This document shows, piece after piece, positions 15,333 through 18,976 of a DNA stretch of 19,480 bases (position 1 is the first letter of the stretch; each line of letters begins with the position of its first letter). A model generated the notes under the pieces. It did not search any database and was not told the origin of the DNA. It was given only the letters and a program-made list of their open reading frames with translations. Location of the stretch: the IMG/VR virus record IMGVR_UViG_2648501130_000004. One strand, 5' to 3'. A program made the position numbers and the translations under genes. This DNA comes from a virus (lineage: Duplodnaviria; Heunggongvirae; Uroviricota; Caudoviricetes).

Positions 15333-15509
15333 ATGCTAAAACAGCAAGATATGACAGAAACCGCCGCCGCAGTCCTTCATTTCTTACCTGCTGACAAGTG
15401 GGTAACGCCACGCATGATGACGAGAACTACCGGAGTAAGCGAAGCCCGGTGCCAGTTAATACTGACTCAGTTAGTTCTGGCGGGTCTGGCGAAGGATAAC
15501 GGCGGGTAA
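15333..15509 (+). CDS. Small hypothetical ORF (58 aa), possibly a gene remnant
   Basis: ATG 15333 preceded by AGGGAAAAAG; the ORF track starts at 15309; no recognisable domain. Confidence 0.3.
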   Translation: MLKQQDMTETAAAVLHFLPADKWVTPRMMTRTTGVSEARCQLILTQLVLAGLAKDNGG

Positions 15510-15963
15510 AGCTGTTGGCTGGAACTGGAATAGCGGTGTTTATGATGCAGATATCAGTGGTGCATCGACATTAATCCTCCACTTCAATATGAATGCGGGG
15601 AGTTGCCCTGCTGTACAGTTCCGCGTGAATTACAGGAACGGCGGTATTTTTTATCGTTCAGCGCGTGATGGTTATGGCTTTGAAGCTAACTGGTCAGAGT
15701 TTTACACCACAACACGCAAACCCTCTGCGGGGGATGTTGGTGCATATACGCAGGCAGAATGTAACTCAAGGTTTATTACAGGTATTCGCCTTGGCGGTCT
15801 GTCATCTGTTCAGACATGGAAAGGCCCCGGCTGGTCTGACAGGTCAGGTTATGTCGTTACGGGTTCAGTTAACGGAAACCGTGATGAATTAATTGATACA
15901 ACTCAGGCAAGGCCAATTCAGTATTGCATTAATGGGACGTGGTATAACGCGGGGAGTATTTAA
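15475..15963 (+). pseudogene. Side tail-fibre protein, C-terminal variable-domain fragment (N-terminal constant part missing)
   Basis: Reading frame is open from 15475 with no fibre N-terminus; the C-terminus ...PIQYCINGTWYNAGSI parallels the minus-strand fibre ...PIQKYINGTWYNVVQV. Confidence 0.65.
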
Positions 15964-15965
15964 CG

Positions 15966-16499
15966 ATGATGCACTTAAAAAACATTACTGCTGGCAACCC
16001 TAAAACAAAAGAGCAATACCAGCTAACAAAGCAATTTAACATCAAATGGCTTTATTCAGATGATGGAAAAAACTGGTATGAGGAACAAAAGAATTTCCAG
16101 CCAGACACTTTGAAAATGGTCTATGACCATAACGGCGTTATTATTTGTATTGAAAAGGATGTTTCAGCAATTAATCCAGAGGGTGCAAGCGTCGTTGAAT
16201 TACCTGATATTACAGCAAATCGCCGGGCTGATATTTCGGGGAAATGGATGTTCAAAGATGGCGTAGTGATAAAGCGAACTTATACCGAGGAAGAGCAGAG
16301 GCAACAAGCGGAAAATGAAAAGCAAAGCCTGTTGCAACTTGTCAGGGATAAAACCCAGCTATGGGACTCACAGCTACGGCTGGGCATCATTTCCGACGAG
16401 AATAAACAAAAATTAACCGAGTGGATGCTCTATGCGCAGAAAGTCGAATCTACAGACACTTCCGGCCTGCCAGTAACGTTTCCCGAACAACCAGAATGA
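15966..16499 (+). CDS. Tail-fibre assembly protein (Tfa)
   Basis: 177-aa [27 protein letters not shown]...; conserved Tfa N-terminus; lies directly after the fibre fragment. Confidence 0.85.
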   Translation: MMHLKNITAGNPKTKEQYQLTKQFNIKWLYSDDGKNWYEEQKNFQPDTLKMVYDHNGVIICIEKDVSAINPEGASVVELPDITANRRADISGKWMFKDGVVIKRTYTEEEQRQQAENEKQSLLQLVRDKTQLWDSQLRLGIISDENKQKLTEWMLYAQKVESTDTSGLPVTFPEQPE

Positions 16500-16504
16500 G
16501 AGAA

Positions 16505-16527
16505 GGCCCGCTATCGGGCCTTAATTT
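16505..16527 (+). terminator. Hairpin GGCCCG-ctat-CGGGCC followed by TTAATTTTT, between the convergent tfa genes
   Basis: Read directly from the sequence; centre of the invertible-segment remnant. Confidence 0.5.
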
Positions 16528-17055
16528 TTACTCTGGTTTTTGTGGCCATTCAGGATTTGCCGTATCCACACGGCTGACCAGAACACTGTAGCGTTCCCAT
16601 GCTTCCAGTCGTGTGCGTTCCTCGTCTGTTGCCATATTCAGCCTGACAGCGCGTTCCAGCGGTTGGATGACTGATTCAGCTTCGGAAAGCAATGCGGCCT
16701 TTTGTGATTCGGCCTGTTGTTGTTGCTCGTCTGCCGTATAAATCCGTTTAACCACAGCTCCGTCCCTAAACATCCACTTACCGGAATCATCAGCGCGGCG
16801 GTTGGCTGTAATATCTGGAACCTCAACGACGCTATAACCTTCAGGGTTAAGCGTGGAGGCATCTTTGGTGATGGCGACAATAATATTATTTGCATCGTAA
16901 ACAATCTTTATTGTGTCTGGCTGAAAGTTTTTCACTTCCTCATACCAGTTTTTTCCGTCTTCGGACCATAACCAGATAACATCAAAATTCTTTGTTAGCT
17001 GATATTGTTCTTTTGTTTTTGGATTTCCAGACTTAATATTTTTTAAATGCTGCAT
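16528..17055 (-). CDS. Tail-fibre assembly protein (Tfa), alternative copy (TfaQ/TfaR-like)
   Basis: 175-aa [43 protein letters not shown]..., very close to E. coli prophage Tfa proteins as I recall them. Confidence 0.9.
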
Positions 17056-17058
17056 AAA

Positions 17059-18021
17059 TTACACCTGTACGACGTTATACCATGTGCCATTGATGTATTT
17101 TTGTATTGGTCTGAATACTGCCGGATCATCGCCATCAACTGCACCGATAATGCCAAGCCCCGTAATTGCATGACCTGATTTCTCATACATCACGCCTTTT
17201 TGCATAGTCTGAACAACACGTGTACCAAGTCGGACATCTCTCACATAACGTGAGTCAAAATTACCATAATTGCCGGGAATAACTTGCGCACCGCAAAGCC
17301 AGTTGCCATTGTTGTCCATGTACGCCTGACCATCGGTGCCATTGGCTGTCCTTGAGTTATTAATCATGTAGATGCCAAATTGCTTATTCCCCAGTCCACC
17401 AATCATAAATTTGCGATCAGCGTGGTCCTGACGAAGTAATGCCTGCGCACCATCGGTGGATACCGCATTGCGTCCCAAAATAACATTCTGGTCACGCATA
17501 TGAATCCACATGCCGGTACTACTGTTAATTGCAAAACGGTTTGCAAATATATCCCCTGTAACATCAAGACCATGCCCCATGCTTATCCGACCAGTTCTGA
17601 GATTAAGCGTAAAGGGGCGTAGTGGCCCTATATCACCATTTTCTCCCTCATTCTCTCGTGTAGGGATGATATGCAGGCATTCTTCAGAACGACGAAAAAT
17701 AGCACCAAAAGATGAATTAAATATCCTCAGTGCATTGACTGTCGATATTTTTACTTCACTGCTGAAAAGGGCTTTAACAAGGACAGACAAAGCATCCCAT
17801 TTAAGAGTCATCAGGTCTTTTGTTGTGGTGCTCTGGCGGCTTCTCCATTTGAAATATTCATTGCCGTTGTCGCCTGTTTCAAACCACATGTATGAATCAG
17901 TGTCGCTGTCGGCATTATTTTTAAAACCAATCTTTGCCCAGTCAGTATTTCTAATCCAGGCAAGGATTGAGTCGTTTTCAAAAGTAAGCCCACCGGACAA
18001 GGTATCGCCATTCTTTTGCAC
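17059..18021 (-). CDS. Tail-fibre variable C-terminal segment (alternative fibre end; constant N-terminal part not encoded here)
   Basis: 320-aa ORF whose first codon is GTG; the frame is open upstream into the crossover site but hits TAA at 18066-18064; C-terminus ...INGTWYNVVQV. Confidence 0.75.
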   Translation of the reverse strand: MQKNGDTLSGGLTFENDSILAWIRNTDWAKIGFKNNADSDTDSYMWFETGDNGNEYFKWRSRQSTTTKDLMTLKWDALSVLVKALFSSEVKISTVNALRIFNSSFGAIFRRSEECLHIIPTRENEGENGDIGPLRPFTLNLRTGRISMGHGLDVTGDIFANRFAINSSTGMWIHMRDQNVILGRNAVSTDGAQALLRQDHADRKFMIGGLGNKQFGIYMINNSRTANGTDGQAYMDNNGNWLCGAQVIPGNYGNFDSRYVRDVRLGTRVVQTMQKGVMYEKSGHAITGLGIIGAVDGDDPAVFRPIQKYINGTWYNVVQV

Positions 18022-18045
18022 GGCGTTCCTGGCCCTGTTTACCGT

Positions 18046-18071
18046 TTCCTGTAAACCGAGGTTTTAGATAA
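18046..18071. other. Site-specific inversion crossover site (gix/hix/pix-like 26-mer TTCCTGTAAACCGAGGTTTTAGATAA)
   Basis: Near-identical to the Gin/Hin/Pin crossover consensus as I remember it (imperfect dyad TTATC..AAACC / GGTTT..); lies between the fibre 5' end and the invertase gene. Confidence 0.65.
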
Positions 18072-18101
18072 TGGCGGTTTCTGGCCTGCATGGCATGATT
18101 T

Positions 18102-18451
18102 GTGCTTTTGGACGGGAGATTCAGCGTGCTGATTGGCTATGTAAGGGTATCAACAAATGACCAGAATACAGACCTGCAACGAAACGCTCTTGTTTGTGCA
18201 GGATGTGAACAAATATTTGAAGATAAATTAAGCGGAATAAGGACAGGCCGACCTGGATTAAAACGTGCTTTAAAGCGCCTTCAAAAAGGTGACGCACTGG
18301 TTGTCTGGAAACTGGACTGACTGGGTCACTGTATGCGGCATCTTGTCGTGCTGGTGGTGGAAGCCTGGAAAAAGTATCGGGTGTTGCTGAACCGTGTTGA
18401 TACATCAACTGCACCTGATATTGAGTGGCCTACGAACCCTGTCAGGGAGTA
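18102..18451 (+). pseudogene. Serine DNA invertase (Pin/Gin/Hin family) pseudogene: intact catalytic N-terminus, premature TGA after codon VVWKLD, degraded remainder
   Basis: LIGYVRVSTNDQNTDLQRNALVCAGCEQIFEDKLSG...LKRALKRLQKGDALVVWKLD then stop; the same frame continues [12 protein letters not shown] (compare Pin LGRSMKHLISLV) and then diverges; full-length invertases are about 185-195 aa. Confidence 0.8.
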
Positions 18452-18976
18452 ATCATTGGGATTATGCCGCAGCACGTCGTATGCAAGAACGTGCTGCGGT
18501 TGGATGCTATTTTTTCCCTGAAGCGGAAAACATTACTACAGTTATGACGATGAATTACAAGGGGTTAAATGATGCCACGGCATAGCGATATTGAAATAGC
18601 CTGGCATGCTTCAATACAGTGGGAACCGAATGGCCGGAAGACCGTCACCACACAGCGGTTTGTCTAGGGACTGAGCAATGTTCACAGGTACTGGGCTATG
18701 AGGGCTGTTAATAAACTGATAAATACGGCAACACCACTTAGGTCAGCGTAGCCGGTAAATCGAAAAGCAACTTCATCCAGGAATTTCTGTCAGTGTTGTT
18801 TGGAGATCTGATTGCCATGATGGATCAAGAGTTCTCTCTTATTGCCGGCTTGGTGTTGACTGAAAACTGGTATGATGCCGGGCGCATGTTGGCTAATCAT
18901 TGGGAATACTGCCGACACTGAACCATTCGCTCTTTTGATTTGGGGCGGTGCGACATAGCATGTAGGGAGTAAATCA

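Follow-up and report, generated by a model that had tools for sequence, protein, structure and literature searches.

Organization of the fibre and tfa cassettes

The DNA analysed here (the window, 19,480 nt) corresponds to an entire defective prophage located between yjjG and prfC in E. coli. Its right-hand part, from 15507 to 18452, comprises in order a fibre 3′ end (+), a tfa gene (+), a second tfa gene (-), a fibre variable part (-), a 26-bp site and an invertase stub. An earlier note, made from the sequence of the window, had recognized this order and placed the module at 15475-18585; Pfam and RefSeq assignments recover all of the elements at about those positions, but the module ends at ~18452. 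The two fibre C-terminal parts form a mirror-image pair, each with its own tfa, and the set is homologous to S′/U′/U/S of phage Mu. In the G switch of Mu, S/S′ fibre ends and U/U′ chaperones are alternated as Gin flips the segment between two 26-bp gix sites, assisted by a Fis-dependent enhancer.

The plus-strand fibre 3′ end (15490/15507-15963) is of the S′ type, that of the Mu G(-) fibre. It carries the Pfam domain gp37_C and comprises the last ~152 codons, whose product is 95.4% identical at the amino acid level to the final 152 residues of Mu S′. Between 15507 and 15963 we found no start codon, constant part or left crossover site, and RefSeq labels the product ‘tail fiber protein, missing N-terminus’. 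The loss of the constant N-terminal part, which the earlier note had also seen, is due to a 25,046-bp deletion (see below). Directly downstream, the tfa gene at 15966-16499 (+) encodes a homologue of Mu U′ (97.2% amino acid identity; Caudo_TAP, E = 2.2e-36), and it is followed by an inverted tfa at 16528-17055 (-) encoding a homologue of Mu U (94.3%; Caudo_TAP, E = 1e-37). The alternative, S-type fibre variable part lies at 17059 to ~18058 on the minus strand; it features the Pfam domain Gp34_trimer and is 70.4% identical at the amino acid level to residues 170-505 of Mu S. This part has no start codon, and its reading frame enters the crossover site. In relatives that carry two crossover sites, inversion would fuse it in frame to the fibre constant part, as seen both in a constructed flipped junction and in real flipped genomes. 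The constant 5′ part with its promoter is deleted from the window, whereas it is kept in the related prophages CT30 (within a 2,970-nt gene) and C2 (within a 2,838-nt gene).

A truncated gin fused to a tfa 3′ end

The invertase gene is a gin stub at 18126-18361 (+). It starts with GTG, runs for 64 codons to a TGA at 18318-18320 and is followed by ~14 further invertase-homologous codons. The earlier note had reported a premature stop after 72 codons, which holds if counting begins at the GTG at 18102; the GTG that corresponds to the start of Gin, at 18126, lies 64 codons upstream of the stop. The stub is 88% identical to residues 1-77 of Mu Gin and 93% identical to Mu gin at the nucleotide level, within a range of 93-95.6% for the gin genes of Mu, D108, SfMu and Xuanwuvirus. 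Homology stops at codon ~78 of 193 (~18361), so that the segment is not adjoined by a complete serine invertase, and only positions 2-73 of the 145 in the Pfam Resolvase domain are covered. The remaining catalytic domain, the E helix and the helix-turn-helix DNA-binding domain are missing, and Pfam detects no helix-turn-helix domain in the stub. RefSeq lists the protein as WP_001378636.1. The ‘recombinase family protein’ annotated at 18126-18320 is a scar and not a gene.

The 3′ part of the invertase had been described as degraded. It is instead absent, and its place is taken at 18362-18452 (+) by a tfa 3′ end, which matches Caudo_TAP positions 104-130 of 131 (E = 6.6e-13), is 85% identical at the nucleotide level to the 3′ end of e14 tfaP and is labelled ‘tail fiber assembly protein, missing N-terminus’ in RefSeq. 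The gin::tfa junction is a deletion or recombination scar, with gin codons ~79-193 removed. An identical junction is present in C2, CT30, PSS-13, PSS-16 and EC958, and 536 of the 5,426 complete E. coli genomes (~10%) carry the allele, the prophages concerned being located at prfC, attλ/bio, potB and trpA. The TGA is unlikely to be the primary inactivating event, given that PSS-16 has TGG at this position together with another, upstream stop (CAA to TAA), while the fusion junction is common to all copies.

The 5′ end of the stub is well preserved: its first 112 nt (18126-18237) are 100% identical to Mu gin. In the literature (1985), the recombinational enhancer is placed early in the invertase gene, ~100 bp from the site. 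The equivalent region at 18147-18215 is a presumed Fis-dependent recombinational enhancer (sis), its position and function being predicted, and contains a Fis-like 15-mer whose centre, at 18154, is 96 bp away from that of the site. In cis, the gix site on the right is still intact, as is the presumed enhancer.

Crossover sites and the 25,046-bp deletion

The right crossover site, TTCCTGTAAACCGAGGTTTTAGATAA, lies at 18046-18071 (+) and is of the gix type, with one mismatch in 26 positions to Mu gixR. It is unique in the window and has no match in 200 shuffled sequences, in line with its earlier designation as gix-like. A mismatch search across the window found no second gix-like site, the next-best 26-mer anywhere having at least 10 mismatches; the segment is consequently flanked by one site and not by two inverted ones. 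The earlier note had likewise failed to find a left-hand site and had pointed to a half-site-like TTACAGGAA at 15630-15638. We rejected this candidate, as the surrounding 26-mer (15613-15638) has 12-13 mismatches. This is the level expected by chance, the median best hit in other 701-bp stretches of the window being 11 mismatches. In CT30, C2, PSS-13/16 and E54/E8, the right site is paired with a left site, TTATCGAATACCTCGGTTTACAGGAA.

Comparison with the full-length CT30 prophage accounts for the missing partner. The window is 99.97% identical to that prophage minus a single deletion of 25,046 bp: positions 1-15508 are 99.97% and positions 15507-19480 are 99.975% identical to CT30, where 25,046 bp intervene. 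The deletion junction, at 15507-15508, has a 2-bp TA microhomology and joins the early/Q region of the prophage on its left to the interior of the fibre variable part on its right. The lysis, head and tail genes were lost along with the fibre constant part and the left crossover site, which in CT30 lies within the deleted DNA, 489 bp upstream of the right end of the deletion. The ‘hypothetical protein’ annotated across the junction at 15333-15509 is also a scar rather than a gene.

The deletion was found in three of the 5,426 complete genomes. Its carriers are 100% identical over 3,401 bp and have a single orientation of the segment, although they may be clonal and so provide weak evidence by themselves. 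Given this rarity and the 99.97% identity to CT30, the deletion is probably recent. The gin::tfa allele is likely to be the older lesion, because it is present in 536 genomes and at several prophage locations.

Orientation of the segment in two-site relatives

Among relatives that retain both sites, all with the same dead invertase, 138 genomes have the segment in the orientation of the window and 132 have it flipped. In E54 and E8, the segment is identical at 3131 of 3131 positions and precisely inverted between the site centres, and the right flanks are identical at 6000 of 6000 positions; PSS-13 and PSS-16 show the same pattern. In both pairs the breakpoints fall at the true left site and at no internal position. 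Moreover, the gin::tfa allele carrier EC958 Phi4 shows both orientations in PacBio reads and flips in culture (PMC4134206). That the two orientations arose as homologous recombination spread the dead allele is less likely than inversion, because E54 and E8 differ only by a precise inversion and EC958 has both forms in one culture.

A blastn comparison with the 3′ half of Mu gin gives matches (~65% identity or more) in 3,173 of the 5,426 genomes. E1433, a flipped strain, carries pinE elsewhere. The invertase lesion alone does not freeze the switch, and a truncated invertase is an unreliable sign of a locked one, because two-site copies are found in either orientation at a ratio of ~1:1.

A probable locked remnant of a host-range switch

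The region is very probably the right-hand remnant of a host-range switch of the Mu G-segment type, locked within a defective E. coli prophage. The switch would formerly have been carried on the side-tail-fibre gene of the lambdoid prophage between yjjG and prfC and would have suffered two lesions. In the first, presumably old, a deletion joined gin codon ~78 to the tfa 3′ end, and the TGA would have arisen later; from then on, the segment could have been flipped only by an invertase supplied in trans. In the second, presumably recent, the 25,046-bp deletion began shortly after the Q antiterminator region and ended inside the fibre variable part; lost with it were every lysis, head and tail gene, the left gix site and the constant 5′ ~2.5 kb of the fibre gene. 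Having a single site and neither an invertase nor a fibre that could be expressed, the segment would have been left locked in a G(-)-like orientation, probably with no residual switching function. The earlier conclusion that the switch is frozen is retained, with its cause narrowed: this copy is frozen because the left site is gone, the invertase lesion alone being insufficient. The missing partner site leads us to deduce that the window copy should be unable to invert, and the rescue in trans by a Pin/Gin paralogue that the earlier note had allowed for could not restore inversion of a segment with a single site.

One alternative is that the orphan right site and its enhancer remain a live partner for gix-like sites of other prophages, acted on by an invertase in trans. 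In its favour, the site has been preserved, the presumed enhancer region shows no difference from Mu gin, such enhancers are active at kb distances according to the literature, and matches to the 3′ half of Mu gin are widespread, as noted above. In EC958, two prophages of the same genome (Phi1 and Phi4) also have near-identical sites (PMC4134206). However, no such event was seen in the window, which is collinear with CT30 on either side of the right site. Moreover, Gin-family invertases strongly favour inverted sites within one supercoiled domain, and we consider this scenario very unlikely. If true, it would allow large chromosomal inversions or swaps of fibre cassettes between prophages, and decayed switches would be unnoticed places at which the E. 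coli genome is especially prone to site-specific rearrangement.

It is less plausible still that the switch is active in the window, with a Gin/Pin-family invertase from another prophage acting in trans on the right site together with a left site that is cryptic and degenerate, for example TTACAGGAA. Trans inversion of the module is real in two-site relatives, the right site and the presumed enhancer are preserved, and the exact 9-mer occurs just twice in the window. Against this, the 26-mer around it is no more like a gix site than arbitrary stretches of the window are, and the breakpoints in E54/E8 and PSS-13/16 lie at the true left site. Furthermore, no fibre constant part or promoter-proximal gene is left for a flipped segment to join, and all three deletion carriers share one orientation. 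The locked remnant is also preferred to a domesticated one, in which the Q-dependent late promoter close by would drive the U′/U chaperones or pieces of the fibre, and these would block superinfecting phages: both tfa ORFs are intact, the deletion placed them ~1.1 kb downstream of the Q gene and K-12 offers a precedent in the PinQ-driven inversion of e14 that creates an adsorption-blocking Stf chimera (StfE2) (PMC12529663), but these ORFs are equally intact in full-length prophages, which makes special selection unnecessary, the deletion is rare and recent, the plus-strand fibre fragment lacks a proper start codon and the e14 mechanism requires an inversion that the window copy cannot undergo, so that such a role is highly improbable.

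Both the module type (Mu G/gin) and the dead-invertase allele (in EC958 Phi4) have already been described, and the window copy is an ordinary fossil, a further decayed prophage module of little importance on its own. Two by-products of the analysis can help annotators and surveys of invertible DNA: the gin::tfa scar is present in ~10% of complete E. coli genomes, and loss of a crossover site, unlike a truncated invertase, reliably marks a locked switch.

Comparison with known systems

The closest known system, and a direct homologue, is the G segment of Mu with gin, to which the CT30 version of the module is 87.5% identical over 3,114 nt. At the amino acid level, the window resembles Mu most in U′ (97%), the S′ C-terminus (95%) and U (94%) and less in the S variable part (70%), and the module shares with Mu the mirror-image gene order and the length class of the segment (3,053 bp). 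In contrast to Mu, the gene to which the module is joined is a side-tail-fibre gene of lambdoid type (2.8-3.0 kb, annotated with a ‘prophage tail fiber N-terminal domain’), which replaces the Mu S constant part, and gin is cut short and continues into a tfa fragment; the window copy additionally lacks the left site, the constant part and any switching function.

Xuanwuvirus phages (P2-like; Escherichia phage 520873 / 503458) carry the same mirror-arranged pair of tfa genes (534/528 nt) and are 95.6% identical at the nucleotide level over the site and the first part of the invertase gene. They differ from the window in having an intact 600-nt invertase gene, two sites and a myovirus fibre context.

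The earlier note had classed the module as of the ‘Mu-G / e14-P type’, which is correct but can be narrowed to Mu, the segment and its gin being homologous to those of Mu. The P segment of e14 in K-12 (stfP-tfaP-tfaE-stfE-pinE) has the same architecture, likewise in a defective lambdoid prophage, an invertase of the same family, and it can be flipped in trans by the paralogue PinQ. However, pinE is only 75% identical to the invertase stub at the nucleotide level, compared with 93-95.6% for gin-type genes, and the 26-bp e14 site, TTCTCCCAAACCAACGTTTATGAAAA, differs from that of the window at many positions; e14 P/pinE was therefore rejected as the nearest relative. The e14 segment is also shorter (1.8 kb), has other cassettes and retains both sites and an intact pinE.

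The decayed allele is also carried by Phi4 of EC958 (ST131), likewise a lambdoid prophage. Its gin::tfa allele and right flank are 98.2% identical to the window over 18051-18542 (492 nt), both the TGA and the fusion junction being shared, and its left-site sequence is as in CT30. Its pair of variable cassettes is not that of the window, nucleotide identity between the two dropping to 71-81%. Phi4 inverts despite its dead invertase, presumably through the Phi1 invertase acting in trans (Forde et al, 2014; PMC4134206); it retains both sites and the full fibre gene, whereas the window copy has lost its left site.

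Layout of the fibre module

ORF listing and Pfam searches bear out the layout that an earlier note had read from the sequence: fibre, tfa, tfa, fibre, site, invertase. A fibre 3′ fragment (15490..15963, plus strand; ORF listing and Pfam gp37_C) is followed by two tfa genes, one on the plus strand (15966..16499) and one on the minus strand (16528..17055; Caudo_TAP, E about 1e-36 for both), and by a minus-strand fibre variable part without a start in the ORF listing (17059..~18058). The 26-bp crossover site TTCCTGTAAACCGAGGTTTTAGATAA (18046..18071) is unique in the window and had 0 matches in 200 shuffles; beyond it lies a Resolvase-domain stub (Pfam), closed by a TGA stop at 18318-18320. 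In the identical DNA of E. coli AR434, RefSeq lists two tfa genes and three products that lack their N-termini (a tail fibre, a phage tail protein and a tfa fragment), and names the invertase stub “recombinase family protein” (64 aa, WP_001378636.1).

A 25-kb deletion removed the left crossover site

The window differs from E. coli SWYH.B349aT at 1 of 19,480 positions and constitutes an entire defective lambdoid prophage in the yjjG-prfC interval, with the integrase gene at one end and a hypothetical gene at the other. A full-length prophage occupies the same integration site in E. coli CT30 and encodes the same proteins. Window positions 1-15508 and 15507-19480 match it at 99.974% and 99.975% identity, respectively; between these two blocks, which overlap by 2 bp (TA) where they join, 25,046 bp of CT30 are absent. 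The absent stretch takes in the final 9 codons of a small ORF lying downstream of Q, a methyltransferase gene, the genes for lysis, terminase, portal, capsid and tail, J and lom, and the first ~2.5 kb of the side-tail-fibre gene (2,970 nt in CT30). This junction is covered in only 3 of 5,426 complete E. coli genomes.

In CT30 and in relatives that keep both crossover sites (C2, PSS-13, PSS-16, E54 and E8), the partner of the right site is TTATCGAATACCTCGGTTTACAGGAA, located inside the fibre gene; in C2, a 38-nt inverted repeat with 92% complementarity encloses both sites. The left site of CT30 ends 489 bp upstream of the deletion's right end. Thus, the window has no convincing left site, as noted earlier, because the counterpart in CT30 falls inside the deleted DNA. 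The half-site-like TTACAGGAA at 15630-15638, put forward in the same note, is rejected as a chance-level match: the surrounding 26-mer has 12-13 mismatches to either site, and random 701-bp stretches taken from the window give best 26-mers that are as good or better (median 11 mismatches, minimum 10).

The deletion also made a new ORF, the RefSeq hypothetical protein WP_001377378.1 (15333-15509), which is CT30 WP_000917724.1 with its last 9 codons swapped for an immediate TAA at the junction. An 858-bp stretch of the rusA/kilA-N region (11632-12489) is present in the window, CT30 and SWYH.B349aT and absent from AR434, whose copy of the prophage has therefore undergone a further, small deletion, independent of the 25-kb one. 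At the left prophage end, a gene for an AIPR-family (abortive-infection-related) protein (~1481-3181) adjoins the integrase and is probably defence cargo. At the right end (18453-19480), a 167-aa ORF (18977-19480), also found in CT30, had no match in a Pfam search.

The invertase stub is fused to a tfa fragment

Invertase homology reaches ~18361, and the stretch that follows, 18362 to 18452, is a tfa 3′ end (Caudo_TAP positions 104-130 of 131, E = 6.6e-13; 85% nucleotide identity to the 3′ end of e14 tfaP). The premature TGA described earlier is genuine, but the supposedly degraded 3′ part is this tfa end. The same gin::tfa junction is present in CT30, C2, PSS-13, PSS-16 and EC958. PSS-16 (7540-7960, compared with window 18046-18460) has TGG at the position of the window's TGA; further upstream it carries a nonsense codon of its own, where CAA has become TAA. 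A shared junction with differing stops argues that the fusion is primary and the nonsense codons secondary; judging from these alignments, the stop codons would have arisen independently and later. Using a 221-nt probe (at least 80% covered), we found the junction in 536 of 5,426 genomes, and the allele is carried by prophages inserted at prfC, attλ/bio, potB and trpA, a spread which argues that the invertase was dead long before the 25-kb deletion. In the prophages at attλ, potB and trpA, the DNA beyond the tfa fragment differs from the window's: one has a diguanylate cyclase gene there, the others a SAM methyltransferase gene and more tfa 3′ fragments.

A dead invertase alone does not freeze the switch

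We built both possible right-hand junctions, each with the dead gin::tfa allele, and found the window's orientation in 138 genomes and the flipped one in 132 (at least 80% covered). At attλ, a 3,053-bp segment (3048/3053 identical) is inverted exactly between the site centres in PSS-16 versus PSS-13. At potB, a 3,131-bp segment (3131/3131 identical; sites at 4257 and 7388) is precisely inverted between ETEC E54 and E8, which have identical right flanks (6000/6000) and a common 64-aa stub. Both are isolates from Bangladesh with the same prophage remnant, and E54 has its own large deletion, which joins the fibre gene to the region of the tape-measure gene. The published prophage EC958 Phi4, whose allele is that of the window at 98.2% identity, showed both segment orientations in PacBio reads of one culture; its invertase was called “severely truncated” and the Phi1 invertase was proposed to act in trans (Forde et al, 2014; PMC4134206). 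The e14 P segment is likewise inverted in trans by PinQ (PMC12529663). Of the 5,426 genomes, 3,173 have a detectable match to the 3′ half of Mu gin; E1433, a flipped strain, carries pinE elsewhere in its genome.

The window itself has neither the partner site nor the constant fibre part, and its invertase is gone too; with all three lost, its segment should be unable to invert and no fibre should be made. The earlier reading of a frozen, decayed switch is upheld, on sharper grounds than those first given.

In these systems, some 100 bp separate the Fis-dependent enhancer from one of the sites (PMC3798978); for Mu, a passage of that paper referring to Kahmann et al (1985) places it inside the invertase gene. 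The gin 5′ end kept in the window is identical to Mu in the presumed enhancer region, so orphan switches with two sites would hold all needed cis elements, and this region might possibly account for the stub's persistence. Recombination of the orphan site and presumed enhancer with sites in other prophages is conceivable, with low probability.

Relationship to the Mu G segment and other inversion systems

Over 3,114 nt, the CT30 segment shares 87.5% identity with the G segment of phage Mu, and it is inverted relative to the Mu reference. At the amino acid level, the plus-strand tfa product matches Mu U′ (97.2% identity), the minus-strand one Mu U (94.3%), the plus-strand fibre end the Mu S′ C-terminus (95.4%), the minus-strand fibre part Mu S residues 170-505 (70.4%) and the stub Mu Gin residues 1-77 (88%). 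The window's site has a single mismatch to Mu gixR, and 18126-18237 match the beginning of Mu gin with 100% identity, whereas e14 pinE is just 75% identical to the stub and the e14 crossover site is different. The last ~45 nt of the stub (18317-18361) are nearer to pinE (27-nt identical run) than to Mu gin; the stub itself is therefore a recombinant mosaic.

The cassette also occurs in P2-like Xuanwuvirus phages, where the invertase is intact. One of them, Escherichia phage 520873 (619-5276), has the same U′/U-type tfa pair and site next to an intact 600-nt invertase gene, an example of exchange among Mu-like, P2-like and lambdoid phages. The window's module is thus that of Mu G/gin, attached to a lambdoid stf gene and, in the window, lying in the G(-)-like orientation. 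The feature is ordinary, its kind and its allele both having been described already.
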